64,000 nt of DNA from Patescibacteria group bacterium (GTDB lineage: Bacteria; Patescibacteriota; Microgenomatia; UBA1400; PJMF01): contig JAZQJV010000010.1 of NCBI GenBank assembly GCA_045541795.1, positions 72,333 to 136,332 on the forward strand. The letters run 5' to 3'. Numbering within the stretch: the first letter of the stretch is position 1; every line of letters starts with the position of its first letter. Of the stretch, positions 9,079 to 28,035 are shown in pieces. The notes under the pieces were generated by a model, which was not told the DNA's origin, did no database searches, and saw only the letters and a program-made list of their open reading frames with translations. The position numbers were made by a program, and so were the translations under genes.

Positions 9079-9780
9079 ATGGAGAGTGAGAGCAAAAAAA
9101 CTAACCAGTTTCTCAATCAGCATCAAATTAGTATTGCAATTGTAGTCGTGGCAATTGTGAGTGTAATCATGTTTATTTGCTGGGAAGTAACAAAAAAAAA
9201 GAAATCAACATATGAACTAGCTCAAAACCCCGTCATTATCAGTAACAACTCTGAACAAATAGTACAAGCCAATCCTGAAGTCGGTATCCGCGGCGACGAA
9301 CCTACAACTACCGACCTTTACGAACAAATCGGAACACAAGAAGTCGACACTGATCATGAACTCAATCAACTTTTAGCTGGTCTCGGCATCGAATTGGAAC
9401 AAGTCTGGGATAACTCCAATCTCCAAGCCCATACAGCACTAGAAAACTATCTTGCTGAGCATCCAGAAAGCCCAATGGTTCCCCCAGGAACCTACGAAGC
9501 CTATGCTATCTATGAGGGTTCGCAAGAAAAAGATTTGGCAGCTTTACAAAACGCTGGCTACACAGTCGGCGGCAAAATTTACCCCGATGGCACTTATGAT
9601 GCCACCTTTTTGGGATTCAACTACAAGATGAAATACGATCAACATCACGTTTATTTTGATGACAATGCTAACGATGGCATTAGTGCCTGGAATGAAGCAC
9701 CGTATGTATGGGACGGCGAAGTGCTTCATATTGCTGTGCATGCAATCGACGTTTACTTGGTCAGAACAGGAGATGTCTAG
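9079..9780 (+). CDS. Cassette 1 protein A: N-terminally membrane-anchored hypothetical protein, paralog of 27388-28035
   Basis: 233 aa. TM segment ISIAIVVVAIVSVIMFICW. The C-terminal region PPGTYEAY...YDQHHVYFDD aligns with PPAGTYQAV...YDDHYLYLED in the 215-aa protein. Confidence 0.6.
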   Translation: MESESKKTNQFLNQHQISIAIVVVAIVSVIMFICWEVTKKKKSTYELAQNPVIISNNSEQIVQANPEVGIRGDEPTTTDLYEQIGTQEVDTDHELNQLLAGLGIELEQVWDNSNLQAHTALENYLAEHPESPMVPPGTYEAYAIYEGSQEKDLAALQNAGYTVGGKIYPDGTYDATFLGFNYKMKYDQHHVYFDDNANDGISAWNEAPYVWDGEVLHIAVHAIDVYLVRTGDV

Positions 9781-9789
9781 GATATAACC

Positions 9790-10887
9790 ATGTCAGAGCC
9801 GATACTAAAAAAAATAAACTTTCAAACTATCACTATTTTTAGTATTGTCCTTGTAGTTATTGTTGCAGCCGCCGGAGTGTGGCAAAATATCAACTTGTCT
9901 CATCAACAATCACCAGCAAATGTCAGTCATGAAAATGTCGATGCCGACGATTTCGTTTATCAAGATCCCACTCTCACCACAAGCAATGAGCTATTAGAAG
10001 AAATCACACCGCAAAACTTCAACGAACAGCTCGCCTACAGCTGGGCCTGGCATCAATATTATGCCAGCACCAGTCTTCCAGAAGCTAAAAGTAGGACCAT
10101 AACTGAGCTAGCAAATGCCAAAAAAATGTTTGACGCTGGTGATCAAAATGCCACCTTAAACTGTTTTTTTATGTGGGATATCATCGGTGATGAAACATTA
10201 GATGCTGACAGCCGCAATCTTGCCCGTGAACTTTGTCATAACGGCAAGCAAAACGTTGTTTACGACTCTAGTTTCAGCCAATACTGGGAGCGCCTCCAAA
10301 AAGGACAGGAACAAATCGAAAGCGAACAAGGAGCATTCTGGTACTATTACCCAGATCGTGTCGTCGAGGATTATACCTTAGAATTAGGTGAAAAATATCA
10401 AAATTACATCTCCGGCAATGCAAACATCACACCAGAACAAGATAACACCGCTGCCGCTAGACAGTTGAAAGACTATGCTCTCGTGATGATTGATAAGTCA
10501 GATCTCGCTTACGGCGTCGCTAATCCAAACTACACCAAAGACCTAAGACTCAAAAATGAAAGTCAGCTGCAATTTATGGCCCTGGGCGAAAAACTCTTTT
10601 CTTGGTATATTGCTTACGGTGACCAGAATTTTGATACTGAAAGCAAGTGTTTACTGCGTGAAGCGTTGACACTTTATTATGATCGATTCACTTCCGCCTT
10701 GGAAGAAAGTTTCCTCACTCGCCTACCAATATGTAATGAACCATCAACTTACTTAGTACAACTTGTAAATCGCGGGCATTATGATAAAATAGAAATTAAT
10801 CCTGTCTTGGTATTGGAAGATGTCCGAGCAGGTGAGGCAACAGATAATTACGAAAAAATAATTATAGCGGGACTACTAAGTCAATGA
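9790..10887 (+). CDS. Cassette 1 protein B: N-terminally anchored hypothetical protein, paralog of 20226-21713
   Basis: 365 aa. TM segment TITIFSIVLVVIVAAAGVW. The block AYSWAWHQYY aligns with AYTWAHHQYY in the 509-aa protein. Confidence 0.6.
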   Translation: MSEPILKKINFQTITIFSIVLVVIVAAAGVWQNINLSHQQSPANVSHENVDADDFVYQDPTLTTSNELLEEITPQNFNEQLAYSWAWHQYYASTSLPEAKSRTITELANAKKMFDAGDQNATLNCFFMWDIIGDETLDADSRNLARELCHNGKQNVVYDSSFSQYWERLQKGQEQIESEQGAFWYYYPDRVVEDYTLELGEKYQNYISGNANITPEQDNTAAARQLKDYALVMIDKSDLAYGVANPNYTKDLRLKNESQLQFMALGEKLFSWYIAYGDQNFDTESKCLLREALTLYYDRFTSALEESFLTRLPICNEPSTYLVQLVNRGHYDKIEINPVLVLEDVRAGEATDNYEKIIIAGLLSQ

Positions 10888-13800
10888 GGAAGGCAAATAA
10901 AACTTACCAGCTCTTCATCAAAGTCGTATTGCCGATTATCGCTTTTGTGTTTATCAGCTTTTTTGCCGCCAAAACCATACTTCAAACTGTCGATGCTAAA
11001 GGCGGGAGCGGACCAGGCAGTGCTCTCGATCCTCAAAATCCAAGCGGACCGATTACTTGTACCACAGGAGATGGACATGGAAATCCTAGCGAATGGGATG
11101 CTGTCACTCCAGCTTGGCGGCCTAGACTAAAAGAAGTCATCCAAAAATGTCGAAATTCTGATGGATACTATAACTATGATCAGCAATGGCTATTTGTGCG
11201 CAATGCAATCGTCTATCCGTATTCAGAATACAAGTCTACTAGCTATTGGGACGTAATCCCTGATAAGATTGCTCCTAGTGCCAGCGTCTACGGCAAAGAA
11301 ACTGGCTACAGAATGCATTGGTTTTACACCACCAATAATTCAGGAAGCTGTAGCGATCATAAGTATTGGAATCTCTGGATCCGTGATTTTGACTGTGATG
11401 GTGTCACTCACCAATGTAGTGAGCTAAATAACGGCAAAAACGTCTTTAAATCTGGACCAGATATCTTCAACGAAGTTTGTGAGCGAGCTTGTAATTATTA
11501 TGAACAGCTCACCAATATGGCATGTAAAAACGTCGTCAGTCAAAACTGGTCGCCAATGGGCACACTTCCCGAAGACCTCGCAAAAAGTGCTCTCACATTT
11601 GACACCACCAATCTAGAAGGAATAATGGATGATGCTGCTTCATATGCAACACTCATCAACAAAGAATTATCAGCATACACTGAATACATTATGAACTATC
11701 TCACTCCAGATAGCAAGTTTATGGTAATCCCAGATAGCGCCAACAGTCTCGAAACTGCACGTTCACAACTTGCTAACCTTGATGCAGTGATCAATACTAT
11801 CCGTAACACACATACAAATTACTCTACTCAGGCTCAGCAAAAAATCAATTCGGCCAATAGTGTGATTAGCTCGCTCACTAGTCAACTCTCCAGTGTTGAT
11901 TATAACGTCAACACTCAGTGTGGGTTTTATGCATCCAACAGGTGCTATACTTCAGGCAATCTGGACAGTAGTTGTAGTGATGCTAGGACTTATCGCTCAC
12001 AACTTGCCAACAGGCGTAGCCAGTATTACAGCTTATTAGATAGTCTCTCCACCAGTACCAGCACTATTGAATATTATGAAAGCGAAGTCAAAAAGCTTCA
12101 ATCTTACCTCAATACATCGATGCAAAACTGTGCCAGCAAAACTAAAAGCGGCTATGGATGTGACTATGCGACAGCCTGTCATCAATACATAAGTATCGAA
12201 CAAACTATAGATGGAGCAAAAGATAGTCTACAAGAAGCCAAAGAACAGTTGTGGGCTGTCAAAACCGATAAAGTTGATTTTGACGACAATACTGAAGCAA
12301 AACTGCGTGAATACGCTAAACAATTTACTCGAGCTTATAACAGCTATAAAGTCGCCGCCGGTAATACCAAAATAGACTGGACGTTTGGTTACTGTTCCGC
12401 CGACGGCTCCGGTGATAGCCCAATGTGTAATAATATCAAGATCATGCAAGGCTGTCTCGAGTTTGTCGGCAAAGCAGAAGCCCAGCTCGCTTCAGAAGGA
12501 AAAGTCAATGCTGTCACCAAAGGGTCACTAAGCGTACATATTGAATCACACAGTTGCGATACCCGCTCAGACTTCATCGACGTCAACTGTTCCATTAAGG
12601 GCTGTTATCAGACTAGAGAGTGGTGCCGTAACATCAATCAATTCTACGTTGAACCAGATGAAAAATGTCCATTGGGAGGTAATGGCCGGATCGCTTACGT
12701 GAATTCTATCCAAAATCCTGGTAGTACTCTGCGATGCCGTAAATGCAATACCTCATTTACTACCTGTGAAGAAGCAGCTAAGTACGCATGGCTTTATGAT
12801 TCCAGCGAACCAAAGGGAAGCGGCAAAAACAATGAAGTTAAAAACTGGGTAGAAGGTTACTACGACAGCAGTTTTGATGCTAAGCGTTATTGGGCCATCC
12901 GTACCAATTGTGAAGCCGACGAAGATCATCAGATCAAAAAATGGATCCAAGATGAAGACGGTCATGCACCCATCCAATGTACGGTCGCTTGTGTACAAAA
13001 CTGTGACGAGATCCGCGATCCCGATACTCAGCAATACATGGAAGAACCAGACCGTGAACCTTTCGTTAATAGTTCTAGCAAATATTATCATACCAGCAGC
13101 TGTTATCGCAAAGGCTGGAATCCAGTTATCAAAGTCGTCGAAGACATTCACGGAATTCAGACCACATGTATTGGCGGCTGTCTCGAGCCTTGCGGAGATG
13201 TACGTCAGTTACAATGGGGTGCAGTACGCAACTATACAGTGAACGGTTATACCTATAAAGACTATGCTCAAAGCACTCGAGATAAATATTTCTTACCAGA
13301 AGACACCAATTGTACCGCTGCTCAATTAGCAACCAAGACTAGCGTCAGCATTCGCGATCACTACAATCGGAGTTACAGCAAGAAATGCTACTCTGACAAA
13401 TGTCGTAAAGACTGTAAATCCATTTGTGAAGCCAGAGGGTGGAAGACTTCAGACTATGACTGCGGATCCGGTATACCCAACTACGCCAGCGTCGACGGCT
13501 GTACTTGTGTAGCAAACTGTTCTGGGGATGCTTGTCGCAATCAAGGTTACTGGCCAGCCAGTCACGTCTGTGCACCAAATGAAGAATCACTCGGCACAGA
13601 GACCATCATTGATAAAAACGGTCACTCAATTGTTTGTCACAAAGGATGCAAAGCCAAAACTCCAGGTGACGAACTTAAGTGTGCTCCAGGCGTACCAGTA
13701 TATAATGGCAGCAGTGTCACGGTTAATGGTGTGACACAAACCGATTTTGTCGGTGATGTTTATATCAACAGTGATGAAACCTTCTATAATGAGCGCAATG

Positions 13801-15644
13801 CCTGGCTTATCACCAGAGACCAAAGAAGATATCCTGCCTATACACTGTCAGGCGAATCACGGGTGCGCAACGTGATTATTTCACCGCTCGGCTATGAGAA
13901 AAAAGAAAGAACCAGCCCATATCAAATCTGTCGTTGGGGTGAGTGTCTCGTCAATGACGCTGCTGAGCGCGCAGATGAACTTAATGCCCGTAATCAATGC
14001 GATAAAAAATACAAGTATTACAGCGCCATCGACGATGGCTGCCGTCGACACTACCAATATATAAGCTACTGCTTTGACGATCCGCCGCCAAATAACTGTC
14101 ATTCGACCTCTTGTGGCCAACAATGCCGCTGCGGTAGGCAGTATTATAGTGGTAGCGATGATGACTCATGTCACTATGCTGGCTGTGTCACCTGTGTGCC
14201 TACCTGCTATACAGAATCAGATCTCGGCTTTGGCATCCGTGAGGTTCCTTGTGTCGGACCAGGTGGAGAAAGAACCCATTCAGATTTCTGTTCCACTAAC
14301 AAATACACCAGCTATGAAGCCTGCAAAGTGCCTACATGTAATAACGTTGATGATGTCCTCGATGTCATGGATCGTACCAATTTCAAAAAATGTGGTGTCG
14401 AGAACCCCAAAGATAGAATTACCCAACTCGATCAAGCGCATGAATATCTAGGTGAGCAAGCGTATGGTGTTGGTGGTATCTACCAGTGCACCGATAGAAT
14501 TCCCAACGCTCCTGACGCTATCGCATATCCAGATGAATGTACAGGTTTAGAAAACCACTGTTTCCACGTCTTACCTTGTGGAGAAGTGCAAGTTGCGGAG
14601 TCCAAAGGACAAATCGGTTCCAAAGTCAGTGCCACTCACAAGGATGAATTCGGACAAGTAACGGGTACTGGCGGACTGCTTTGCGGTGGCGGCGCATGCA
14701 AAGAAAGCGATCATTACATCTTTATCCCTGGTACAGAATCCACCAATTATCAAGTTGGTGTCGCCGGCCAACGTTGTGGACGTTATTGGGAAGTCTCAGA
14801 ACCGCAATGGTCGATGGCTGGGGGCACATCCAATATTTACACCGCAGAAGGCTCATCTAAGCGTAGTAAAGAAAAGGGAGTAACTACTGACCGTTGTGGC
14901 AACGCTAATGGTGTCGAACTCACTAGAGGTAGCTTCAAACTTGAAGATAGCGTACCGCTAACATACGAATTCTTTGAACAAGCCATGGATATTTCTAAGC
15001 TTCCCAGATGTAGTGATGTTACCATAGATACAGACGAGTTTTACATCTGTAAAGAAAACGGTGACTTTAGTACTTCCGATCTTAATCCCGACCTACTTCG
15101 TGCCGACCGCAATCTCGTAGTTTTCATGGACTCGGAAAGTGGTACTTTCACCATTGATACTCAAATAGAAACTGCCCGTGATTACTTCAAAGCCTTTATC
15201 AGTCGCGGTAAAATGGTGATCGACTGGGGCGTAGGCACCTGGCCAGAAGCAGCCTACGAACGCAACCTTGGTTGTGCTGATACCGACACCGCTGACTTAC
15301 AAGGCTTCTTTGCCGCTGATGAAATTACTTTCCCCAGCAAATTGGTAGCAGATTCTCAAGCAAATGCCTTTAACGAAAACCTGCGCTGTGATCGGCAACT
15401 TGTCATCGCTGGCAACCTTATCCAGTGGGGAGATAAGGCGCTCAATCTCACCCGTACATTCCGTGGTTGCGTCGGTGGCAATGAAGACCTTGCTGCTTGG
15501 AAAGCAGCCGAACAAAATCCAGCTGTTTACCGTGATTTCAATAAGATCATGTCACCGTATGTGTTCTACCAACGCCCCGACTTCCAAAATTCCGCTCCCG
15601 AATGGATGAAAACGAGCAATACCGAAAGAATTGAGGTAAATTAA
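10884..15644 (+). CDS. Cassette 1 protein C: giant secreted cysteine-rich protein (1586 aa), paralog of 21710-27388
   Basis: N-terminal signal anchor. More than 100 Cys in CxxC and C-x-C patterns. The C-terminal roughly 400 aa are conserved with the 1892-aa paralog: TADLQGFFAA...VIAGN(L/I)(I/V)QWG...RTF(R/K)GCVGGN...YQR(P/S)DF(Q/N)(N/S)S(A/V)P(E/N)W(M/L)KT. The start overlaps the upstream stop (ATGA), implying translational coupling. Confidence 0.7.
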   Translation: MRKANKTYQLFIKVVLPIIAFVFISFFAAKTILQTVDAKGGSGPGSALDPQNPSGPITCTTGDGHGNPSEWDAVTPAWRPRLKEVIQKCRNSDGYYNYDQQWLFVRNAIVYPYSEYKSTSYWDVIPDKIAPSASVYGKETGYRMHWFYTTNNSGSCSDHKYWNLWIRDFDCDGVTHQCSELNNGKNVFKSGPDIFNEVCERACNYYEQLTNMACKNVVSQNWSPMGTLPEDLAKSALTFDTTNLEGIMDDAASYATLINKELSAYTEYIMNYLTPDSKFMVIPDSANSLETARSQLANLDAVINTIRNTHTNYSTQAQQKINSANSVISSLTSQLSSVDYNVNTQCGFYASNRCYTSGNLDSSCSDARTYRSQLANRRSQYYSLLDSLSTSTSTIEYYESEVKKLQSYLNTSMQNCASKTKSGYGCDYATACHQYISIEQTIDGAKDSLQEAKEQLWAVKTDKVDFDDNTEAKLREYAKQFTRAYNSYKVAAGNTKIDWTFGYCSADGSGDSPMCNNIKIMQGCLEFVGKAEAQLASEGKVNAVTKGSLSVHIESHSCDTRSDFIDVNCSIKGCYQTREWCRNINQFYVEPDEKCPLGGNGRIAYVNSIQNPGSTLRCRKCNTSFTTCEEAAKYAWLYDSSEPKGSGKNNEVKNWVEGYYDSSFDAKRYWAIRTNCEADEDHQIKKWIQDEDGHAPIQCTVACVQNCDEIRDPDTQQYMEEPDREPFVNSSSKYYHTSSCYRKGWNPVIKVVEDIHGIQTTCIGGCLEPCGDVRQLQWGAVRNYTVNGYTYKDYAQSTRDKYFLPEDTNCTAAQLATKTSVSIRDHYNRSYSKKCYSDKCRKDCKSICEARGWKTSDYDCGSGIPNYASVDGCTCVANCSGDACRNQGYWPASHVCAPNEESLGTETIIDKNGHSIVCHKGCKAKTPGDELKCAPGVPVYNGSSVTVNGVTQTDFVGDVYINSDETFYNERNAWLITRDQRRYPAYTLSGESRVRNVIISPLGYEKKERTSPYQICRWGECLVNDAAERADELNARNQCDKKYKYYSAIDDGCRRHYQYISYCFDDPPPNNCHSTSCGQQCRCGRQYYSGSDDDSCHYAGCVTCVPTCYTESDLGFGIREVPCVGPGGERTHSDFCSTNKYTSYEACKVPTCNNVDDVLDVMDRTNFKKCGVENPKDRITQLDQAHEYLGEQAYGVGGIYQCTDRIPNAPDAIAYPDECTGLENHCFHVLPCGEVQVAESKGQIGSKVSATHKDEFGQVTGTGGLLCGGGACKESDHYIFIPGTESTNYQVGVAGQRCGRYWEVSEPQWSMAGGTSNIYTAEGSSKRSKEKGVTTDRCGNANGVELTRGSFKLEDSVPLTYEFFEQAMDISKLPRCSDVTIDTDEFYICKENGDFSTSDLNPDLLRADRNLVVFMDSESGTFTIDTQIETARDYFKAFISRGKMVIDWGVGTWPEAAYERNLGCADTDTADLQGFFAADEITFPSKLVADSQANAFNENLRCDRQLVIAGNLIQWGDKALNLTRTFRGCVGGNEDLAAWKAAEQNPAVYRDFNKIMSPYVFYQRPDFQNSAPEWMKTSNTERIEVN

Positions 15645-15651
15645 AAAAAAT

Positions 15652-15761: not shown

Positions 15762-16949
15762 TCACATCCTTCCCGTCACGTACAGCAAACCGTTTTCGTC
15801 TCGCCGTCCCCAATCACCAGTCCGATACCAGCCGCCCTGCAATACTGCCGCTGTGCGCCCGCGGTCTTGATAATACCCACTCATCACTTGCGGACCGCGC
15901 ACCCAAATCTCACCCTCATTTTCATTGCTGCCGCCCACAAATTTCACTTCTATATTTGCCAGCGCTCGGCCAACGCTCGCCGACACACCTAAGTGACGGT
16001 AACCGCTAGCAATGCCCGGCGCGCATTCCGTGCAACCGTATGTGGCCAGCACTTCTATCCCGGCCAAAGCCCACTTCTCTTGTATACTCACCGGTACTGC
16101 CTCGCCGCCACAGATGATCTGATTAAGCGCCCCACCAAAATACTGCCGCCAGCTATTCTGGTCGCCGTGCTCACTGCTGGCTCTTTCCAATTTGCCTGTC
16201 AATTTTTGCAGTATCAGCGTGGGCATTACTACTACCGTCGGCCGAGCAGCCTGCAATAAGCCTTCCGGATGTCGCCAATCCAGCGGAAAAAATATCTGCG
16301 CTCCGCAACTGCACCACCACAAAAGGACTGACAGTCCCAAAATATGCTCACCCGGCAGCCACGAGAATACCGCGCGATCACCACGAAAATCATGCAAAAA
16401 TTGCCCGCCCCAAATCACGGCCAACACATTTTTTTGCGTGAGGGCCACCACTTTGGGCTGACCCGTAGTGCCAGAAGTGGTGATCAAGACAGCCAAATCA
16501 TCACCTTGAGGCTGGAAGCACGTGAGCCTCTGCCGCGCTTCAGGCCGAGCAGGGGAGTGCTCTACTGTCTGGATTACCGTATCCGGCTGGCACTTGTCAC
16601 TATCACTTACCAAGCAAACCGCTTGGCGGAGCCGCCAGGCCGCCAAAATGCTCACCAACCACCAGTAACCAGGCTCCAGCCGCAAGCTCACTTTTTGCGG
16701 CCGTTCGGGATCAAATTTTTCCTGCCAAGCTGCAGCCGTGTTTTCTACGTCGGCCACCAGCCCGTCATACGTCACTGTCCTCGTTTTCCCGTCCTCATCA
16801 GTGTAAACGCCAGCCAGCTGCCCACCGTATTCTTGCCGTAAAAAATCCAAAAACTCACTAATCTGTACATGTGCGCGCGGACAAAAAGCACGCTGTGGAT
16901 AATCACCAAGATTTACCCCAGGCGCTAGCCCCTCATACACCATGCTCAT
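15762..16949 (-). pseudogene. AMP-dependent synthetase/ligase (acyl-CoA ligase family), 3'-truncated; C-terminal subdomain missing
   Basis: TSGTTGQPK (A3 motif) and YRTGD (A8 motif) are present. The ORF ends at ...YVTGRM, directly before the conserved GRxDDxIK region. The stop codon lies 11 nt from the copy B hairpin. Confidence 0.55.
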
Positions 16950-16952
16950 ATC

Positions 16953-17813
16953 TTACAAAATTTCTTCCGTCTCTTCATCACTCTGCCACGGGATCAAGTA
17001 ATTATCCCGGCGCATCGCTTTATTTTCGCCGACTTTTTTCGCCTCACCCCGCAAAATTTTCTCAAAAGGCTCGCAGTGCGGGCAGCCGCCATGCGGGCAC
17101 TTAAAAGCATTTAGCTTCCTGGCCGTCGCGATCCGCCGCCCGGCTTCTAGCACTCGGGCACGAGCTTCATCGAGTGACGGCAGCGCCTTTGGCGTCAGTT
17201 CATTACTCCATTCCAGATACCAGTAACTCGCCGCGGCTACCGTGTACTTTTGACAGTTGACCGCCAAAAGTAAATAAATCGGCAGCTGCAGTGACTTCGG
17301 ATCTTCTTCGCTTTTGCTGGTTTTAAAGTCGATGATGTGTACCGTCTTGGCGTGCGAGTCATACTGCAGCCAGTCAAGTTTGCCGCACAAAATTATATTT
17401 TCCTCTTCACTGATCCAGTAATTGGGCAGATCGCCCTTGATTTTTACGGCCAGCTGTTTGAGCGGCCCGGGATGTTCCATCACCCGCTCCAGCATTGCCT
17501 GGCCGCGGTCATGGTATGCTTTTTCTGCATGCTCACTTGTAAATCCTCCCGCCTCGCCGTGTACCTTTTTCCAGACTTCCTCATACCGTACCAGTAAGCT
17601 TTGTCTAAAACGTTCTGCCGTAGGCAGCGTCGACAGTCCTTCCAGCACGTCGTGTACACTGATCCCCAGAGAAAGAGCCGGCGACACTATCTGGATTTTG
17701 TGCTTCGTCACCGGGTCTTTATACATGTTTTTGAGGTAATACGCCCGCGGACAAGCGAGATAGTCGCTGATACTACTGTGTGAAATCCAAGTGGCACTAA
17801 ACTTATCTGGCAT
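16953..17813 (-). CDS. PD-(D/E)XK nuclease superfamily protein with Fe-S Cys cluster (Cas4/RecB-nuclease-like)
   Basis: 286 aa. N-terminal Cys in CPRAYYLK, a GKLDWL Asp motif, IIDFKTSK (D-x-K), QLPIYLL (QxxxY) and a C-terminal CPHGGCPHC cluster. Confidence 0.6.
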   Translation of the reverse strand: MPDKFSATWISHSSISDYLACPRAYYLKNMYKDPVTKHKIQIVSPALSLGISVHDVLEGLSTLPTAERFRQSLLVRYEEVWKKVHGEAGGFTSEHAEKAYHDRGQAMLERVMEHPGPLKQLAVKIKGDLPNYWISEEENIILCGKLDWLQYDSHAKTVHIIDFKTSKSEEDPKSLQLPIYLLLAVNCQKYTVAAASYWYLEWSNELTPKALPSLDEARARVLEAGRRIATARKLNAFKCPHGGCPHCEPFEKILRGEAKKVGENKAMRRDNYLIPWQSDEETEEIL

Positions 17814-18874: not shown

Positions 18875-18993
18875 ATATCTTTCTATTGTTCGTTCCTTTA
18901 TCTTTCTGCCGTGACATCAACTTTTTCTGTATTAACTATGTCACAACTGTTTACATTATATCACATATAGGCTATTTTGTCAAGACCCAATTT

Positions 18994-19002
18994 CTTATTC
19001 CC
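18994..19002 (+). promoter_or_regulatory. Extended -10 element TGGTATAAT, about 16 nt upstream of the LCP start codon
   Basis: TGGTATAAT at 18994-19002; ATG at 19019. Confidence 0.5.
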
Positions 19003-19018
19003 GTGGTATAATACGCCT

Positions 19019-20191
19019 ATGCTAAAAAAGTGGTACTTCTGGCTGCTAATGAGCGTCGTTTTTTTCTTGACGGCCTTCCTTACGGTGGTTATGGGTCTAT
19101 TTTTTGCCCATCCGGTAGTCATCATCGGCTCAGGCGAAAAACTCATCCAGCTAGAACTCGCACCGGTAGCCGAAGACCCGCTCAGACCTGTCCACATCTT
19201 GCTGCTCGGGCATGGTGGCGGCAGTCATTCTGGCGGCAGCCTGGCAGATACTATCATTTTAGCGCAGATCATCCCCAAAAAACGCCAAATCAACCTCTTT
19301 AATATCCCCCGTGATTTATGGGTGGAATTACCATTTCCCGCCCGTGATGGGGGAGAGGAACTCATGCACGCCAAGGTCAATACCACTCTCGCCATCGGCA
19401 GCAGTGAGCGCCAATACACTTGGCGTAGTGAGCAATTTAAAGGCGAGCACGGCGGCGGCGCCCTTGCCAAATACGTTATCGGCCAGATTACGGACTTGCC
19501 TATAGATTATTATGTGGCCGTGGATTTTAGTGGTTTTGTGAAAGTTATAGAGACTATTGCCGGTAAACAGGGTCTCAAAATTGACGTGCCGTATTCCTTT
19601 GTAGACGAATTTTACCCGATAGAAGGACTAGAAGACGATCCATGCGGGTTTAGTGAGGAAGACATCGCCACAATGTCGGCTACGCTCACCGGCTATGAGC
19701 TGGAAAAACAGTTCACCTGTCGCTACGAAAGGCTAGAATTTACCCGGGGTACCCAGCTAATCGCCCCCGACCAACTGCTTAAATTTGTCCGTTCTCGTCA
19801 TTCTGGCACTCATGGCGGGGATTTTGGCCGCTCGCAGCGCCAACAAGTAGTAATTGAAGCCCTCAAACAAAAAATTTTCTCGGCCAGCATGATCGCCAAA
19901 GTCCCTGAGCTCATCCGTCAAGTGCTGCGCCTGGTGCGCACCGACCTTGACTATGAAATGCTCAGCTCTGTGCTTTTGGCTTACGACGGGATTGAAGATT
20001 TTCAGATCACCAGTTTTGTCTTGACCAATCAGAATTTATTGGCAGACGGACGCAGTAGTGATGGCCAGTATGTCTTGCGGCCACGGCTGGGCTTGGATGA
20101 TTACCGCCAGATCCAAGATCTGGTCAGCTGGACACTCGAGGCCACTGGCGAAGCCACGCTAGACGATTTCATGTCACTAATCGGTGAATAA
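19019..20191 (+). CDS. LytR-CpsA-Psr (LCP) family cell-envelope glycopolymer transferase
   Basis: N-terminal TM segment. LGHGGGSH...LADTIILAQI and FVRSRHSGTHGGDFGRSQRQQVVIEAL match LCP-family motifs. I prefer the start at the Met after the promoter, not the ORF-track start at 18977. Confidence 0.7.
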   Translation: MLKKWYFWLLMSVVFFLTAFLTVVMGLFFAHPVVIIGSGEKLIQLELAPVAEDPLRPVHILLLGHGGGSHSGGSLADTIILAQIIPKKRQINLFNIPRDLWVELPFPARDGGEELMHAKVNTTLAIGSSERQYTWRSEQFKGEHGGGALAKYVIGQITDLPIDYYVAVDFSGFVKVIETIAGKQGLKIDVPYSFVDEFYPIEGLEDDPCGFSEEDIATMSATLTGYELEKQFTCRYERLEFTRGTQLIAPDQLLKFVRSRHSGTHGGDFGRSQRQQVVIEALKQKIFSASMIAKVPELIRQVLRLVRTDLDYEMLSSVLLAYDGIEDFQITSFVLTNQNLLADGRSSDGQYVLRPRLGLDDYRQIQDLVSWTLEATGEATLDDFMSLIGE

Positions 20192-20198: not shown

Positions 20199-20227
20199 TT
20201 GACAAGCTTCCTCCGGCATGATTTAAT
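20199..20227 (+). promoter_or_regulatory. Putative sigma70-like promoter inside the 3' end of the LCP gene: TTGACA, 17-nt spacer, TTTAAT
   Basis: TTGACA at 20199-20204 and TTTAAT at 20222-20227, upstream of the cassette 2 protein B start. Confidence 0.35.
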
Positions 20228-21713
20228 GGAGCGAGATTATAACGCAGAAACTATGACAGCAAAACAAAAGGGCACGAGTTTGTCCACACCAGATAAAAGT
20301 TGGCAGATTATAATTTGCACTGTCATTGTTACTGTCGCCATAAGTGTCATTTTTTCATTGATTTACCGGTATTTTTCCCGCAAGGCACAGCCAGGGGATT
20401 ACGTAGTAAGTAGTGATCTGCATCCGCGCGAGGTGGAAGCGCCATACCTGCAGGCCGCCAGCAAACTGCTTGAGAGCGCAAGCCGCGATCAAGCCTTTGC
20501 CAATCTGGAGACCACGCTCGCTTATACCTGGGCGCATCACCAATACTACCTTGCCACCGGTCAAAAAGAAGCCATAAACGACGTCGCCGCCGGGATTGAT
20601 CACGCGAGCACGATTATGGAACAAAAAAGCGATTTTGGCCCCAGCAGTGACATGTTGCCCGAACAATTAAAAATCGACCCGGCAAAAATTGGTCTTTTTT
20701 GCGCGATGTATCAAGATATTTACCAAGATCACACCCTACACAGTTCCCTGCGTGAAAGCACTCTAGCACTGTGTGATCAGGCCAGTGAAGATTTCTACCT
20801 CACACCCCAGATGCAAGAGTTTCACGATCGCCTCGAGCAAGGCCAAGCCAAAATGAATAGTGAAGCCAGCGCTTTGTATACCTACAATCCGGAGTACATC
20901 ATCAAGGAAGTCACCGAGCGCCTCCAAAGTGAACTGCAAAAATTCTCCCGCGGCGGCGATTTCTCATGGTATGATGACGCCTCGATAGACATGCCCACTG
21001 CCCGCGACAATCTCGCCCGGCATTTGGCGGCCACCAGTAATAAATATTACCGCCGCCAAGTTTTTCACTCAGTCTCGCCAACAGACGACGACGCCAGTAT
21101 CAAGCGGTTGCAAGCCCAAAACACGCGCGATCAGTTTGACTGGCTCTATTTGCTCGGTCAGACTTTATCCTGGTATGCTCACTATGGCGTCAGCCAAGAA
21201 GAAGAAAAATGCCTACTCCAGCAAAACCTCATCACTTATCTGCATTCCAGCTCTGCCGGCGACGTGGGGGCAGGAGAAATTTTGGCTTATGCCTCACCTC
21301 TATCAGGCACGATGTCTCCTGAGTGCCAAGTGCTAGCATTTTATAATTATCACCCCGATACGGATACCTTTAACCGGCAGCTCAATCTCGCCAGCAGTGA
21401 ATTTGTAGACGAATACACGCCCACGGCGGAAAAACTGTATTTAGCGGGCCTACTGACACAAGAGGAACAAGAGCAAACCGATCACTTAGAGCGGCTCGGC
21501 GGTGTAGACATTTCTCTGCCGGAAGGCTTTGAAAATATCTATGACGAACTGACCCAAGAAGACTTAGACGCCGTACCAGATATTTTTGACACCGCCACTT
21601 GGGAAGAAGTATCCTCAGCACCAGCAAACACAACTGTAAGCGATGAAGAACTCTACCGGCAAGCGGAAGAATATTACCAGATGTTACAGGAACATGAGGA
21701 GGCTACACCATGA
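20226..21713 (+). CDS. Cassette 2 protein B: anchored hypothetical protein, paralog of 9790-10887
   Basis: TM segment IIICTVIVTVAISVIFSLIY, then AYTWAHHQYY and other blocks shared with the 365-aa protein. The start is ambiguous: GTG at 20184, ATG at 20226 or ATG at 20253. Confidence 0.55.
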   Translation: MERDYNAETMTAKQKGTSLSTPDKSWQIIICTVIVTVAISVIFSLIYRYFSRKAQPGDYVVSSDLHPREVEAPYLQAASKLLESASRDQAFANLETTLAYTWAHHQYYLATGQKEAINDVAAGIDHASTIMEQKSDFGPSSDMLPEQLKIDPAKIGLFCAMYQDIYQDHTLHSSLRESTLALCDQASEDFYLTPQMQEFHDRLEQGQAKMNSEASALYTYNPEYIIKEVTERLQSELQKFSRGGDFSWYDDASIDMPTARDNLARHLAATSNKYYRRQVFHSVSPTDDDASIKRLQAQNTRDQFDWLYLLGQTLSWYAHYGVSQEEEKCLLQQNLITYLHSSSAGDVGAGEILAYASPLSGTMSPECQVLAFYNYHPDTDTFNRQLNLASSEFVDEYTPTAEKLYLAGLLTQEEQEQTDHLERLGGVDISLPEGFENIYDELTQEDLDAVPDIFDTATWEEVSSAPANTTVSDEELYRQAEEYYQMLQEHEEATP

Positions 21714-24700
21714 AACTTTTTGCCCGTTCCCTCACCAAACTCACCCACTGCCTCACACTAATAGCCATGTGCGCCTTTATCTTTACTAGCCGTTCTGATG
21801 CCGTCTGGTGCGCCGCTCTCAATAAAGACATCACCTGCCCCAATGGCGATCATCCGCCAGGCTCCACGCCTCATCTAGGCAATCTTTTCACGATCAATCG
21901 TACCACTCTGCGCGCCGCCATCCGTTGTTGTGGCGGCAGTGTCAACTTTGACCGTCTCTGGGTACGCGAGGAAAGCCAAAGCGGCTGGCCGGGTTTTCAT
22001 GTCCACTGGGATTATGATACCAATAGTTCTGCCAGCTGTTACACCAAAAATTTTAACCTCCACATCCTCAATGACGACTGCCCAGGCTTAGGTAAAGTCA
22101 GCTCATGCCCCAAATCCGGCTCAAAATCTTATTTAAGCGGCGCGGATTATTTTGAATATTTATGCCGTGATGCTTGTCAATTGTATGAAGGTATGACTGG
22201 TCGCTCTTGTAGTGAAATTGTCGATCAGGTCAGCTCCCCCTTAGGTACAGCTGATACAGACCTGGGACGTAATGACGTCGCTTTTGCTCTCGGTGATCCC
22301 GATCGGCGCAAAATCTTGCAAGGTGCCGTGGACGGACTCAATGAATTACTACCATATGCCAACGTAGAGCATTGTGGCCTTACTAAGGTGAGCTCGCTCA
22401 ATCTCGGCCGGGTGGACTCTCAAATTGACTATTTATTTGACCGCGGCACTGGCGATAATTTTTGTCTGGAAGGTGAGCTTTGCTGGGCCAGACGAGAAAC
22501 TGCCTACTCGCAAGCCAAACGTGACCAAATGCGTATCCAGATGGATTACACCTGTGAGGCTTACAAATATGCCTATTACACGCCACAAGCTTCTGATAGA
22601 TTTTTGGAAGAATGGAAAAGTATCTATAGTAAAACTAAAAGCAAAACTTTTTATTATGACCGCAAATACGCCTCTGGCGACAGTGTTTACTCTTCTCGCA
22701 CTAGTGGTAGCGCCTCGGTGAGCTTTAGTGAAAGCGGACTTTGCCGCATGGCTGGCGACAAATGGATTTGCCAAAACGAGCCCAGTGGTGAGTATCCCGG
22801 CAGTCTACAAGGAGCCAAAAATAATATGAACAGCGCTGCTGACTACTACCGTAATTCTGCCAATCAAGATGCCAACTGGTACAGCAGTGAGGTCGGCAAA
22901 ATGGAAGGTTATATCCGAGGCAATACTTCTTGCCGCAATAATGCCAATAATAAAATTAACTCCAACTGTCCTTACGTCGACTCCGCCTACAGTTCTTACC
23001 GATCTGCCTACAACAGTTATTCTTCCTGTTATTCTTCTTGCCGCAACCAAAAAAACGCCGACGGCAAATATAAAAGTAGCAGTGAATGTGACAGCCAATG
23101 CAATTACGGTCACGTCCAGTCGCTCTACAATACTTACAGCAACTATTCCAGTAATTGTTCCTCTGGTCGCTCCGAGTATAATACTTGTGTCAGTAATTAT
23201 AATTATGCCGTCAATAATATCGGCGATTACTCGTACCGAGCGGCCTTTTACCGTGCCCGTGCTGAGCTATATGATGAGCACAAACAAGACTACAACAACA
23301 ATAATGATTACTTCCAGTACCGTATCTACTACCGGGTGGGGCAGATCACCGCTTCCTACGGCAACATCAATTGCGCCAACAACAAGTATTACGAAGGGCA
23401 AAAATTTGGCGATGATCACTGGAAACCTTACTATACACAGTGGTACTCTCACTCATACAATCGCGATACTGCTGTCAGCAACTGCCGCAGCATTACGCGG
23501 TCTAAAGGCTACGATCATTGTATTGAGGCGATTGACGAGCTCCCACGTCAAGTAAGACTTTACAAATATTCCCGTGAATGGTCTGAGCAGACTGGCAACG
23601 ACAATTACTACTGCACCAATACCAGTACCACTGTCTGCTCTCCTTCCACCAAAAACGGTGGCTGTCACACCAATCCGGAACGCTCCTACATCAATATCGG
23701 CGGCAACTATTACTACACCAACGGCCTCACCAAGCGTACCGACGATAAAACTCCGCACACCTGGAGCTATAACGGCACCACCATGAACGTGCGCTGCTAT
23801 AAAAAAAGCCGACTGGAAACAAATGATGACATCGAATGGATGAAATCACACATTTCGCTACCAGGTTTCATCGAGTCGTATATCAAGCCGCAAGTTGCCC
23901 TGATCATAAAACGCAAAGACGCCTACTACAAAACTATTCCGGCTAAAAGTGGCGGCGGCGATCCCAGCAATGCTTGGTTTGAGTCTTGGCGCAAAGCCGG
24001 CGGCACCAATCTATGTTCAAACAAAACCAGCATCAATACTCGCGGTTGTGTCGCTGTCAACCTGCTGCAAAGTTGTCTTAATAAAGCCAACTCCATGATG
24101 CAATCCAATACTTCAGACGTCACTCATAAATCCGAAGGCATCCTCACCACTTACCAAGATAACCATGCCTGTACCGGCGATAATGATGCCGTCTCCTCCT
24201 CACGCTGTTATAAATTTGGTTGCTACGTGCAGCGGGAAACCTGCCGCAACGTCGACCAGTTCTTCGTTGACTACGATGAAGTCTGTAGTGTGGGTACTTA
24301 CGCCGGCAGTAAGAGCCCGGATATTTATTACAATCAAGGAACCAATAAAAACCTTACCTGCCGCAATTGCGCTGCCGCAAATTCTTGTAGTCAGGCAGCG
24401 GCACAAGGTTACCGCTATGATCCGCTGGCTTCTAATCCCAATAATACTAATGTCATCATGGGCTTTTTGATCGATGATAAAAACGCCTCCCGCTATAAGA
24501 CGATCCTCACCAGCTGTCCGGCTGGGCAGCACTGCGAGACAAAAACTTTGAGATATAAAGGCAAAACCATCGGCAACTGTCTCGTCGTCACCGACTCTGG
24601 TGTCACCTGTGCCAGTAACGGACTCAAAGACTTCTCTTCCAACGCTTGCGCTTACAGGAGCGACGGCCACAATACTCCGGTGCCACGCTATATTAATGAA

Positions 24701-27388
24701 TACGACACCAGTGGTAACATCATCAAAACTCACAAATGCTGGACTGGCGAATGTGTGGACTCATGCGTGGCTGCTGGCTATTACACTTGGTCGCCTGTCA
24801 ACACCACTAACTGTACCAGTACTTACCAATGTATTGACGGTAGCGGCTATTTCTACGCCACCAATGACCCCCGCAATGGTTGTGCTTATGCTGATACTCT
24901 CGCCGCTCACGCTCTCCCGAATGCGGCAAAACTTTTTTACAACCGTGTCTATCCGGGATACTGTTTTAACGCTCACTGCCGTGCTACACCGCCTGGCGGT
25001 GCCAGTATCTCCAAAAACATTTGTATCGAACACGGCTATGCGGCCATAGTCGGTGATCCTTTCTCCTGCGGACCACGAGAAACCTCTCTAGGAATCGAGA
25101 CGATTACTTACTACGAAAATGGTAGTGCTAAAACTCAGGATTGTTATATCGGCTGCCGGCTCAATATCGCCAATAATACCGAGCAGTGCACTGCTAACAC
25201 TGTCACTGGTAACAATACTCCTGACGCCGGTGCGATGCTGTGGTTTAATCACCAAGAAGACCGCTATCAGCGCCTGCCCACTTACTTGATCAAAGTCGGG
25301 GAGCGTACTTGGTGCTACGCCGATAAAGCCGGGCACAACGGTTGCTCTGCGGCCGCTTATAGAGCGTCACACTTATACCAGGTGGCCGCCAAAAACGGTA
25401 TGTTTACCCCAGCCAGCATCAATAAAGTCTCTGTGTGCCGTTTTGATCGCTGTGCACCCAGTGATGCCAGTATCACCGCCCAAGGCCTCAATGAAGAATA
25501 CGAAAAAACCGTCTGCGCTAGTCTCGGCCTCGACCCCAAATCTACCATCACTAGCAATAATGAGTACCCACAAAAAACTTACGGCCGTAGTGGCGGTAGC
25601 GTCTACATCGCTGAGGTCGGCGGTCTGTATGATAGCTGTGATGGCATTTACCTGTACAACCGCTGCGTCCGCCAAAACAATAGCTGCGCTCCGCGCTGCC
25701 GCAAAGATACAGATCTGGGATACGGTACTTATGAAGCTTACTGTCAGCATTACAACATCAACTCTCGTGCCCGCGGTCAAGACGGCAAATATATAGATAC
25801 CACCAGAGATAGCTCTGGGGCTTGGTGGACGCGCACCGATACCTGCGACGATGGCAGCTATAGTACTCAAACAGATTATCACTCCGAAATTGCTTGCAAC
25901 GTGCCCACTTGTGCCGACGGCTGGACGCTCGCCATCGACAAAAACGAGACGCTCAAGCCTACCGACACCAACGGTCACACTAATGCTGTCCGCTGTGGCC
26001 AGACGTATGACTTAGACTGCAATCATTCTGCCTTCCTCACCACTCGCTCCAGCACTACACTCACTCTACACACCGGTGTCTGCTATGGCCAAGGCGGTAC
26101 CATCCAGTGTGCGCCCAATGCTCCCGCCCCACAGCGCTCGCCAAATAGAGCCGGCTGTCACACTGGCAATACCAGCTGCTACAAGCTAGAAGGCTGTGCT
26201 ACAGAATACGACAATAACGGTAACATCAAGACATCCACTCATCCCACCGAATTTGGCCAACCCAATGAATCCGGACTGTATACCTGTGGCAATAGTACCG
26301 ATCCCCGTTGCAATATCAATAATGACTTCATCTTTATCCCCGCCGGCCGCAGTGATACCCGGGAAGCTTACCTCGCCAATTACGGCGCCGGCAACGCTCA
26401 TTACAAAGCCGGCACCAACGGCCGCCGTTGCGGGCGCTATATGCACGTCTCCGCACCCAAATGGGCTACCGCCACCCAAAATCCGGCCACTCAGGGTGCG
26501 CAAAACATCTATGTCAACAGTACTAGTGGTACCGCCACCGATCGTTGCCCGGGAGCAGTACAACCGTTTAACTCCAGCTCTTTCACGCTCGCTGGTGACC
26601 TCAAACTTGATTGGAATTACTTTAACACCTTAGTGGACGTCTCCAAACTGGAGCCATGCGCCAATATTTCAGGCTTCAATGAAGCCGCCTGGAAAACTAA
26701 AACCGCCAATATGGATGGTTACTATGCTTGCCGCGAATATGACAGCGTCGTCACTTCTAGCTCCTTGCTAAACAAAGGTCTGCTTGACGCCAGCCGCAAT
26801 GTGATCGTCTTCTTTGACGATCCCAATGCCACCTTCCGTATTGACACCAATATCGTCACCGATATTGGTAGTTTCAAGGCATTCATTTCTCGCGGCAGCA
26901 TCGTCATTGATCCCAATGTCGGCAAATTCCCCAAAGCAGCCATGAATGACCACGGTGGCTGTTCATCAGAAACTACTGCCGATTTACAGGGATTTTTCGC
27001 CGCCAAACAGATCAGATTTGATCATATGGATTATTCCGGCAGCTCAGTAAAAGAAATCAGTCGTATCGGCCTCAATCCTCAACTCGTACCTTTCAACGAC
27101 GTCACTTCATTATACTGCGATAAGCAAGTGGTCATCGCCGGCAACATTGTCCAGTGGGGAGGTGGCGGCATCCAGATGAATCGTACCTTCAAAGGTTGCG
27201 TGGGCGGCAATGCCACCACCGACGGTGAAAGCAGCCTTGACTGGGAATACGTCATCGCCAATCCTGCTGCTTATCCAGATTACAACGCCTTCCTCTCGCC
27301 GGTAATTATTTATCAGCGCTCCGATTTCAATAGCAGTGTGCCCAACTGGCTCAAGACCAACAGTACTCAGAGAATAGAAAGTCGCTAA
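21710..27388 (+). CDS. Cassette 2 protein C: giant secreted cysteine-rich protein (1892 aa) with internal Ser/Tyr/Asn-rich low-complexity insert
   Basis: Signal peptide MKLFARSLTKLTHCLTLIAMCAFIFTSRSDA. Homologous along its length to the 1586-aa protein, for example CRDACQLYEG vs CERACNYYEQ and GCYVQRETCRNVDQFFVDYDE vs GCYQTREWCRNINQFYVEPDE. The start overlaps the upstream stop (ATGA). Confidence 0.7.
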   Translation: MKLFARSLTKLTHCLTLIAMCAFIFTSRSDAVWCAALNKDITCPNGDHPPGSTPHLGNLFTINRTTLRAAIRCCGGSVNFDRLWVREESQSGWPGFHVHWDYDTNSSASCYTKNFNLHILNDDCPGLGKVSSCPKSGSKSYLSGADYFEYLCRDACQLYEGMTGRSCSEIVDQVSSPLGTADTDLGRNDVAFALGDPDRRKILQGAVDGLNELLPYANVEHCGLTKVSSLNLGRVDSQIDYLFDRGTGDNFCLEGELCWARRETAYSQAKRDQMRIQMDYTCEAYKYAYYTPQASDRFLEEWKSIYSKTKSKTFYYDRKYASGDSVYSSRTSGSASVSFSESGLCRMAGDKWICQNEPSGEYPGSLQGAKNNMNSAADYYRNSANQDANWYSSEVGKMEGYIRGNTSCRNNANNKINSNCPYVDSAYSSYRSAYNSYSSCYSSCRNQKNADGKYKSSSECDSQCNYGHVQSLYNTYSNYSSNCSSGRSEYNTCVSNYNYAVNNIGDYSYRAAFYRARAELYDEHKQDYNNNNDYFQYRIYYRVGQITASYGNINCANNKYYEGQKFGDDHWKPYYTQWYSHSYNRDTAVSNCRSITRSKGYDHCIEAIDELPRQVRLYKYSREWSEQTGNDNYYCTNTSTTVCSPSTKNGGCHTNPERSYINIGGNYYYTNGLTKRTDDKTPHTWSYNGTTMNVRCYKKSRLETNDDIEWMKSHISLPGFIESYIKPQVALIIKRKDAYYKTIPAKSGGGDPSNAWFESWRKAGGTNLCSNKTSINTRGCVAVNLLQSCLNKANSMMQSNTSDVTHKSEGILTTYQDNHACTGDNDAVSSSRCYKFGCYVQRETCRNVDQFFVDYDEVCSVGTYAGSKSPDIYYNQGTNKNLTCRNCAAANSCSQAAAQGYRYDPLASNPNNTNVIMGFLIDDKNASRYKTILTSCPAGQHCETKTLRYKGKTIGNCLVVTDSGVTCASNGLKDFSSNACAYRSDGHNTPVPRYINEYDTSGNIIKTHKCWTGECVDSCVAAGYYTWSPVNTTNCTSTYQCIDGSGYFYATNDPRNGCAYADTLAAHALPNAAKLFYNRVYPGYCFNAHCRATPPGGASISKNICIEHGYAAIVGDPFSCGPRETSLGIETITYYENGSAKTQDCYIGCRLNIANNTEQCTANTVTGNNTPDAGAMLWFNHQEDRYQRLPTYLIKVGERTWCYADKAGHNGCSAAAYRASHLYQVAAKNGMFTPASINKVSVCRFDRCAPSDASITAQGLNEEYEKTVCASLGLDPKSTITSNNEYPQKTYGRSGGSVYIAEVGGLYDSCDGIYLYNRCVRQNNSCAPRCRKDTDLGYGTYEAYCQHYNINSRARGQDGKYIDTTRDSSGAWWTRTDTCDDGSYSTQTDYHSEIACNVPTCADGWTLAIDKNETLKPTDTNGHTNAVRCGQTYDLDCNHSAFLTTRSSTTLTLHTGVCYGQGGTIQCAPNAPAPQRSPNRAGCHTGNTSCYKLEGCATEYDNNGNIKTSTHPTEFGQPNESGLYTCGNSTDPRCNINNDFIFIPAGRSDTREAYLANYGAGNAHYKAGTNGRRCGRYMHVSAPKWATATQNPATQGAQNIYVNSTSGTATDRCPGAVQPFNSSSFTLAGDLKLDWNYFNTLVDVSKLEPCANISGFNEAAWKTKTANMDGYYACREYDSVVTSSSLLNKGLLDASRNVIVFFDDPNATFRIDTNIVTDIGSFKAFISRGSIVIDPNVGKFPKAAMNDHGGCSSETTADLQGFFAAKQIRFDHMDYSGSSVKEISRIGLNPQLVPFNDVTSLYCDKQVVIAGNIVQWGGGGIQMNRTFKGCVGGNATTDGESSLDWEYVIANPAAYPDYNAFLSPVIIYQRSDFNSSVPNWLKTNSTQRIESR

Positions 27389-28035
27389 TGCCCGTCACCC
27401 GCCAAAAACCAGTTCATCAAAGTTCTCAGGTTTACGTCATCATTGCCGTCATTGCAATCGTGATTTTGCTGATCGTCAGTGTCTTGGTAGCTATGCATAG
27501 TCAGGCCACTAGCGGTCAACTCACACCTGGGTCTTTACTTGTCTCTCATCACCAAGCCGCATCTTCGCCAGACAGTTTGACCCCATCCACCGCCTACACC
27601 AACGACTCGCCGGTCACCCAAGAAATGCTTGAGCACGAAATTACTGATTTGATGATCGCTTTTGGCATTGATGATGCCAGTACTCAGTCCACGCCAGAGC
27701 CGGAAGTATTCGCCGAGACAGACGTAGAAATGCTGTCGGCCGCCAATACTACTCAAATTGCTCCCCCAGCTGGCACTTACCAGGCCGTCAACCTCTTTGA
27801 ACGCGGCATCCAAAAAAACCTCGCCGCGATCCAGGATCAAGGCTATAATATCACTATCACCTTAGACGGCGCTGGCCGGGCTCAAGTTAATTTCTTTGGT
27901 TTGGAGTTTACAGCTACTTATGATGACCATTATTTATACTTAGAAGACCAGACCCGCGTCCCTTACTATTATGATGGCGTCACAATCACTGCCGCTGCCC
28001 ACCGTATCGAGCTTGACTTACAAAAAACACTGTAA
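27388..28035 (+). CDS. Cassette 2 protein A: anchored hypothetical protein, paralog of 9079-9780
   Basis: 215 aa. TM segment VIIAVIAIVILLIVSVLVAM. The start overlaps the stop of the giant gene (TAATG). Confidence 0.55.
   Translation: MPVTRQKPVHQSSQVYVIIAVIAIVILLIVSVLVAMHSQATSGQLTPGSLLVSHHQAASSPDSLTPSTAYTNDSPVTQEMLEHEITDLMIAFGIDDASTQSTPEPEVFAETDVEMLSAANTTQIAPPAGTYQAVNLFERGIQKNLAAIQDQGYNITITLDGAGRAQVNFFGLEFTATYDDHYLYLEDQTRVPYYYDGVTITAAAHRIELDLQKTL

Follow-up and report, generated by a model that had tools for sequence, protein, structure and literature searches.

What function is served by two neighboring sets of genes for giant, cysteine-rich secreted proteins is the question raised by the stretch analyzed here, 64,000 nucleotides (nt) of contig JAZQJV010000010.1 from a Patescibacteria group bacterium (positions 72,333 to 136,332; referred to below, at its full length, as the window). 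Each set, or cassette, encodes a small membrane protein (A or A'), a larger anchored protein (B or B') and a giant protein (C or C'), in the order A-B-C in cassette 1 (9079-15644) and B'-C'-A' in cassette 2 (20226-28035). The original prediction, made before any database search, was that they form a duplicated surface or adhesion system, possibly the host-attachment machinery of an episymbiont. The answer that we tentatively prefer is close to this one: each cassette may be a strain-variable surface recognition or adhesion unit that was derived from a pilus-associated module. Export or anchoring of the proteins was supported and the hypervariability of the locus fits such a role, while adhesion and an episymbiotic way of life would go a step beyond these observations.

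The cassette genes were judged to be real because their ratios of nonsynonymous to synonymous substitution (dN/dS) were low in comparison with a sister strain. In cassette 1, A (9079-9780, + strand) was an open reading frame (ORF) homologous to A' and encoded a single-pass membrane protein of 233 amino acids (aa), B (9790-10887, +) a 365-aa protein predicted to have an N-terminal transmembrane (TM) anchor and an all-alpha ectodomain, and C (10884-15644, +) a giant secreted protein of 1586 aa. The members of cassette 2 were a B paralog of 495 aa counted from its ATG (B', 20226-21713, +), a giant secreted C paralog of 1892 aa (C', 21710-27388, +), and an A paralog of 215 aa (A', 27388-28035, +). 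The seven ORFs had been located correctly in the original prediction, apart from the length of B', which reaches the 509 aa given there only if a GTG at 20184 is the start; the protein collection records B' at 495 aa. More than 100 Cys residues had been claimed for each giant, but the counts were 78 in C (4.9%) and 91 in C' (4.8%). As expected, a single hydrophobic segment was found at the N-terminus of every cassette protein and none elsewhere in any of them, which supports the conclusion that all three proteins are exported or membrane-anchored. The h-region of C', judged by eye, was shorter and signal-peptide-like. Overlapping genes were confirmed at B/C and B'/C' (ATGA) and at C'/A' (TAATG), but not at A/B, where the genes are 9 nt apart.

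All three pairs were paralogous, and the motifs quoted earlier for A and B were seen in the alignments. BLASTP identity was 27% between A and A' (E 9e-18), 25% between B and B' (E 8e-17), and 29% across about 1240 columns between C and C' (E 9e-96, residues 504-1584), with an additional N-terminal block of 99 aa at 38% identity in the giants. The two cassettes are best explained as ancient paralogs.

The giant proteins appeared to be modular. In C, a signal or anchor segment (aa 6-36) was followed by an N-terminal module that is conserved (around aa 140-240), by a region of helical or coiled-coil-like character with weak matches of the SMC/FliJ/JetC type (around aa 280-510), and by a Cys-rich region (around aa 500-1210); no internal repeats were found in this protein. 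The cysteines of C and C' probably form disulfides. Neither giant matched any Pfam, NCBIfam or PHROG family, and the only PADLOC result was a weak JetC/MukB-like coiled-coil match in C. Phage genomes and plasmid records contained no match for the cassette proteins. An origin from a prophage, a plasmid or a defense system was rejected, the PHROG, phage and plasmid searches being empty and the PADLOC search nearly so.

The most conserved part of the C-type proteins was their C-terminal domain, which defines the family (14514-15641, +, in C; about 26204-27385, +, in C'), while the parts before it varied, from about 340 to 1900 aa. Over these last ~375 aa the giants shared 45% identity, in agreement with the conserved domain that had been noticed at the outset. 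The end of C reads ...RPDF..S.P.WMK....R.E.N, so that the protein stops two residues after R-x-E. When 1.84 billion representatives were searched exhaustively for the domain with HMMER, 27 proteins were found. The domain was at the extreme C-terminus in all 27, preceded by N-terminal portions of roughly 100 to 1500 residues that were mostly Cys-rich and had signal peptides at their start. A match to a well-characterized family, named beforehand as evidence that would count against a new system, was looked for, and no curated family matched A, B or C; the earlier statement that the giants resemble no nameable family holds to this extent, although their C-terminal domain does have these rare relatives. 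One relative, the 787-aa protein P0007, contained a Hint/intein-like domain (Hom_end_hint, Hint, PT-HINT) at residues 64-213, right after the signal peptide and a Gly/Cys-rich stretch, which suggests that some family members may be autoprocessed.

A structural model of the C-terminal domain was made with AlphaFold2 from a 23-sequence alignment, while narrower alignments were used in the locus scans. The model (pLDDT 78, pTM 0.80, residues 130-360 mostly >80) predicted a beta-solenoid of the type found in ComZ and in ice-binding proteins (IBPs); Foldseek gave no significant match for it in the Protein Data Bank (PDB), and a profile search of the domain against PDB sequences found nothing. DUF3494, the family of the IBP-1-type beta-solenoids (PDB 7bwx, 5uyt, 6bg8, 3wp9), matched none of the window proteins and none of the 23 aligned sequences (E ≤ 0.1), and the C-terminal domain differs from it in having its own conserved Cys and terminal motif. 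DUF7305 (PF23981) was seen in four of the 23, all distant members, below its 27-bit gathering threshold (best 18.5 bits), and in neither C nor C'. Ice binding by C and C' is implausible because the source is a gut organism.

The distant relatives of this domain were found beside pilin genes. A metagenome scan with a distant subgroup of the family returned 16 loci, and in each of the loci that reached downstream (11 of 11) one orthologous type IV pilin gene came directly after the C-like gene. The partner pilin contained the sequence GFTLIEVLV... and scored 210-264 bits against a common profile. Longer contigs from this group carried three to five more pilin genes and genes for a prepilin peptidase, PilC and a PilT-type ATPase, facing the C-like gene. 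The PilY1/PilC proteins, adhesins associated with type IVa pili, are large, carry a Sec signal and are not pilins themselves, although their genes are located among those for minor pilins; PilY1 has a conserved C-terminal docking domain, a beta-propeller, behind a variable adhesive N-terminal part. The C-like proteins linked to pilins likewise carried Sec signals and not pilin leaders, so that the position of their gene is, by analogy, that of PilY1 in classical minor-pilin operons. The analogy is one of function and applies to the pilin-linked group: PilY1 ends in a beta-propeller and C and C' in a predicted beta-solenoid, no PilY1/Neisseria_PilC domain was matched in the cassette proteins by Pfam or NCBIfam, and the cassettes of the window lie outside any minor-pilin operon.

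In a neighbor-joining tree of the family, the pilin-linked proteins formed a clade apart from a second clade, within which the giants were one branch. The members of the second clade all ended exactly two residues after a conserved W-M-K-x5-R-x-E, whereas the pilin-linked members ended in ...H-E-W-R-E-V-x-P plus 4-6 residues. That the distance to the C-terminus is fixed may point to a terminal element for recognition or capping. Only one non-giant locus of the second clade (L009) had upstream sequence, and it contained a B-like gene. This gene encoded a 477-aa membrane protein that overlapped a 595-aa C-like gene by ATGA, ended in ...LLAGLLLE, and was related to B (hhalign probability 88%, E 3e-6). 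The presence of a distant B homolog beside a C-like gene indicates that the B-C pair predates the giant clade. A was found only together with giant C proteins, and the genes adjoining C-like genes in four further loci (L006, L007, L016, L020) had no detectable relation to A or B. Divergently upstream of the B-like/C-like pair in L009 was a gene (598-2664, -) whose 688-aa product was a signal-anchored Beta_propel (PF09826) protein.

A lack of conservation of the triad in related genomes had been named as grounds for refuting the system, and the triad passed this test: a phmmer search of locus ORFs found A, B and C together in five related loci, in both gene orders and in every related genome found. 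All of the relatives were ruminant-gut metagenome-assembled genomes (MAGs), with two to three C paralogs per genome. The order A-B-C was seen in the sister strain (L001) and in another MAG (L005). The order B-C-A was seen twice in the goat-jejunum MAG RGIG2556 (L002 and L003), and as B'-C'-A' behind a LytR-CpsA-Psr (LCP) gene in L022, which is probably from the same sister strain as L001, as inferred from their shared metagenome. In L002 a further C-like gene, encoding at least 1202 aa with 6.0% Cys and ending at 3609, was located just upstream of the cassette. This tandem arrangement provides a simple origin for the permuted gene order, in that A-B-C may be the remnant of a B-C-A-B-C-A array that lost its ends. 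Directly before the full B-C-A cassette of L002 there was also a 194-aa ORF (3761-4345) with no TM segment or family match.

Comparison with the sister strain showed that cassette 1 is the variable part of an otherwise closely related sequence. Proteins encoded in the flanks were 94-99.6% identical to those of L001, with synonymous divergence (dS) of 0.05-0.21, and nucleotide identity fell from 95-100% in the flanks to 60-78% within an island (8850-15550, located by sliding identity and blastn). The island had sharp edges, at about 8850 and about 15550, and contained only cassette 1 and the intergenic region upstream of A. Protein identity in A, B and C was 60%, 58% and 79%, dS was saturated, and dN/dS was low (0.13 in A and 0.04-0.07 in the computable windows of C). 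The combination of saturated dS and low dN/dS indicates an old allele and not fast adaptive change; positive selection of that kind was therefore rejected as the source of the divergence, and cassette 1 is presumably an old allele brought into a young background by recombination. Cassette 2 was 94-98% identical to L022, with dN/dS of about 0.1-0.2, but C' was a mosaic in which dS rose to 0.83 in the middle of the gene and was 0.02-0.1 at its ends. The cassette genes are thus under purifying selection. Hypervariability at the strain level fits a role in recognition or adhesion. Upstream of A, the opposite strand of the sister strain carried one more ORF, of 113 aa (L001 7625-7966); the counterpart in the window (8850-9079) did not contain it.

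Proteins A and B were likewise rare: profile searches of 5.8 billion clusters identified only four clusters for A and five for B, none of them named. A consisted of an N-terminal TM segment (aa 11-40), a variable linker, and a conserved C-terminal domain of ~100 aa with the motifs PPGTYEA...YDQHH...PYVWDG...H in an alignment of six homologs. Neither A nor B had a family or PDB sequence match (Pfam, NCBIfam, PHROG, PADLOC, PDB). From the charge distribution, read directly off the alignment, the topology of A was judged to be extracytoplasmic in most homologs. Conserved features of B were Cys residues and the C-terminal motif AGLL(S/T)Q, beyond which B' has an extra, acidic tail. Modeling predicted a membrane-anchored (alpha/alpha)6 toroid for B, a probable fold that is also that of glycoside hydrolase (GH) family GH76. 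The idea that A and B are degenerate pilins was rejected: the Pfam N_methyl model matched none of A, B and C, and in hhalign comparisons with the partner-pilin profile the probability was 9% for the A profile and 0.1% for the B profile.

Taken as a recognition or adhesion unit, a cassette might work as follows. C and C' each have a signal peptide and would leave the cytoplasm through the Sec pathway; many disulfides would stiffen them. Behind the conserved N-terminal module, the helical region could serve as a stalk for the long, variable, Cys-rich region, with the conserved beta-solenoid at the other end. The solenoid would be the docking end, and contact with the target (presumably the surface of a bacterial host) would be made by the variable bulk. 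In the pilin-linked sister clade, the solenoid may dock on the adjacent minor pilin and so place the protein at a pilus tip, much as in ComZ/PilA2 or PilY1. In the lineage of the window, the pilin partner would have been replaced by A, with a small, presumably beta-rich ectodomain, and by B, with its extracytoplasmic toroid. Since A and B are N-terminally anchored and translationally coupled to the giant, they would probably hold or present it on the cell body. Two cassettes could then mean two specificities, with cassette 1 swapped between strains as a whole allele; such exchange, and the retention of paralogs, fit a specificity determinant.

The closest structural parallel to this docking is ComZ of Thermus thermophilus (PDB 6qvi), a protein at the tip of the competence pilus, which has an IBP-like solenoid, caps the pilus and binds the adjacent pilin PilA2 (PMC6561018). 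ComZ is itself a pilin-like, DNA-binding protein, and its solenoid is an insertion in the pilin fold (PMC6561018). C and C', by contrast, have a Sec-type signal, no pilin domain (a GspK-like domain with a solenoid insertion was absent from both), a predicted solenoid that forms the very C-terminal end, and 1200-1500 residues besides it; they share no sequence similarity with ComZ, and the structural match was not significant. In general description, the giants belong with the large Cys-rich extracellular proteins of Peribacteria, in the candidate phyla radiation, which average about 1650 aa, have signal peptides and several percent Cys, are encoded by clustered genes, vary between strains, and have been proposed to function in attachment (PMC4736985). 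With 1586 and 1892 aa, 4.9% and 4.8% Cys, a signal and strain-level variation, C and C' answer to this description, a likeness that does not imply homology; A or B partners, a C-terminal family of solenoids and a link to pili are not described in that paper (PMC4736985). The original statement that no description of such a system was known therefore needs qualification, as the class of Cys-rich giants was known already. No description of the A-B-C triad, of the C-terminal domain family or of its split into pilin-linked and B-linked groups was found in the literature, and a transposon-sequencing study of Southlakia mentioned none of these families. Membership in the pilins, PilY1, ComZ, DUF3494, DUF7305, GH76 and polymorphic toxins fails in each case on at least one defining feature.

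Several observations weigh against a pilus-derived unit on the cell body. The linkage to pilins was confined to the sister clade, and a class III signal peptide (G-F/M-T/S-L-x-E, cleaved after the G, plus a hydrophobic helix) was found in no frame of the window or of the loci L001-L009. A C-like gene with no adjoining A or B was present in L004, from the same MAG as L005. The model of B was built on six sequences only, with a pLDDT of 74, and is silent on activity.

The strict linkage of the sister clade to pilus operons and to a single minor pilin also allows a different reading, in which C and C' would have remained tip proteins of type IV pili, like PilY1 or ComZ, docking through the solenoid on minor pilins encoded elsewhere, with A and B as membrane chaperones or loading factors. 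The predicted ComZ-like fold would agree with this, as would a type IV pilus assembly gene of the pilM type 8 kb away in the window, followed by three ORFs that have no family match and are possibly pilN/O-like (35760-38505). In cultured Saccharibacteria, moreover, host binding is mediated by pili and by non-canonical 'PilX' proteins, which have large C-terminal domains (PMC12206443). The pilus-associated adhesins studied in Nanosynbacter also have big C-terminal domains, but of jelly-roll and propeller folds (PMC12206443). However, no pilin gene was found anywhere in the 64-kb window and no prepilin-type gene in any of the seven giant-clade loci, the giants and L009 form a clade of their own with a different C-terminal ending, a cargo of 1600-1900 aa far exceeds known tip proteins, and A and B are not pilin-like. 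We consider a tip location for the giants unlikely, though it deserves to be kept in mind.

The genes around the cassettes bear on two further readings. Between the cassettes and directly before cassette 2 was the gene for an LCP glycopolymer transferase (18977-20191, +; Pfam LytR_cpsA_psr E 1e-28, 100.7 bits against a cut-off of 24.6; TIGR00350, 77.9 bits against 62.3), with 34 nt from its stop to the start of B'. PMT_2, GT2 and GT4 glycosyltransferase genes upstream and a PBP1A gene downstream were also recognized by Pfam. The cell-envelope neighborhood described in the original prediction is thus present in the window, but it is not conserved: L003 shares it in rearranged form, and L002 and L005 do not, their cassettes being located among genes for UvrB, RRF, RseP and ATP synthase. 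The link that had been drawn between the LCP gene and cassette 2 is not conserved either: the two were adjacent again in L022, but in RGIG2556 the LCP gene was located downstream, past two genes on the opposite strand. The LCP gene is probably a neighbor and not an integral part of the cassette.

A role in attacking or remodeling envelopes would make B an active GH76-like six-hairpin glycosidase or transglycosylase, possibly acting on glycans of the alpha-1,6-mannan type in actinobacterial hosts, and C a carbohydrate-binding or scaffold protein that positions B. The predicted toroid is what favors this possibility. B had only about 8% identity to GH76 and other (alpha/alpha)6 toroids (PDB 4v1r, 6u4z, 6shm), and the toroids of LanC, TED and epimerases scored nearly as high against its model. 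No match to any GH family was found for B in Pfam, NCBIfam or PDB sequences, and catalysis by B is without any sequence-level support. The adjacent Asp-Asp catalytic pair was not evident in the alignments by inspection; D130 and D134 were conserved but are not adjacent, and only five columns were invariant once the L009 homolog was added. B also differs from GH76 and the other toroids in crossing the membrane once and in the coupling of its translation to that of a giant partner. Since the envelope genes nearby are not conserved either, an enzymatic machine seems improbable. The toroid fold also raised the idea that B cyclizes the Cys-rich protein in the manner of LanC; this was rejected as well, given the predicted extracytoplasmic location of the B domain and its lack of a sequence match.

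Large, exported, Cys-rich and strain-variable proteins encoded next to LCP, PBP1A and glycosyltransferase genes, as in this genome, might alternatively be structural, forming an S-layer-like coat or wall-spanning fibrils whose variation serves to evade phages or immunity. The extreme rarity of the family (27 clusters in few lineages) is unlike that of a core envelope component, the proteins have no repeats or known S-layer domains, and their distant relatives are linked to pili and not to the wall, so that we regard a structural coat as quite improbable. The cassettes might also be a system of polymorphic toxins or effectors, in which C is delivered as the toxin and A confers immunity. This would account for a large secreted protein beside small partner genes at a strain-variable locus and for the Hint/pretoxin-HINT-like domain of P0007, but can be set aside as very improbable, because the C-terminal domain is conserved and the variation is upstream (the reverse of polymorphic toxins), no toxin, immunity or PADLOC match was found except the weak one in C, and A appears from its charge distribution to be extracytoplasmic in most homologs.

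Other genes in the window were recorded alongside the cassettes. The glycosyltransferase cluster (801-8825) encoded a PMT_2-like enzyme of the GT-C type, two large paralogous membrane proteins, and GT4 and GT2 enzymes. A cluster of this kind was near the LCP gene in both the window and L003 (11055-16334), inverted relative to the cassette. With a PMT-type enzyme beside Ser/Thr/Asn-rich giants, glycosylation of the giants is a possibility. Between the cassettes, 15762-17813 (-) encoded a 395-aa AMP-binding enzyme, for which the Pfam match stops at the end of the AMP-binding domain and which may be without the usual C-terminal subdomain, and a Cas4-like PD-(D/E)XK nuclease. The nuclease was 99.6% identical in the sister strain and 86% identical in RGIG2556, where its gene comes directly after B'-C'-A'. 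Divergent from the LCP gene was a gene (17912-18874, -) for a 320-aa protein of no known family with one TM segment (aa 44-68), preceded by a promoter-like site (18983-18955) that reads TTGACA-17-TATAAT without mismatch and has a TG extension. This protein was more variable between strains than its neighbors (87% aa identity and dN/dS of 0.31, against 98-99.9%), was 52% identical in RGIG2556, where its gene still adjoined the LCP gene, and could be another surface component.

Farther away, the window encoded a 779-aa ATPase of the HerA/TrwB/VirD4-like type (44055-46394), lactate dehydrogenase and many tRNA synthetases, and no rRNA was found in it. Together with pilM, LCP and PBP1A, these genes would be compatible with a member of the Saccharibacteria. 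A tRNA-Ala(GGC) gene (55798-55871) was followed by a tyrosine recombinase/integrase gene (55983-56918, -) and then by a stretch of lower G+C content (0.40-0.43, compared with about 0.47), and this region (55798-60000) may be an integrated element.

Host recognition by episymbionts is largely unknown, and beyond type IV pili few candidate adhesins have been proposed (PMC12206443, PMC10633639). The C-terminal domain family described here ties giant, Cys-rich 'dark matter' proteins to the minor-pilin machinery of pili, and the cassettes add a conserved three-protein unit with two testable partners, which takes up about 14 kb of what is probably a very small genome. A bolder and more doubtful version of the recognition-unit reading is that a ComZ/IBP-type solenoid was rewired from a minor pilin to A and B, giving ultrasmall, probably Patescibacterial gut bacteria a pilus-independent way to display giant adhesins, from two to three ancient copies whose alleles are exchanged to change host specificity. 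The natural pattern of allele replacement is what would be expected for a determinant of host range. If the docking model is true, the solenoid, paired either with A and B or with its partner pilin, would provide a handle for pulling down host receptors, and host range would become predictable from metagenomes.

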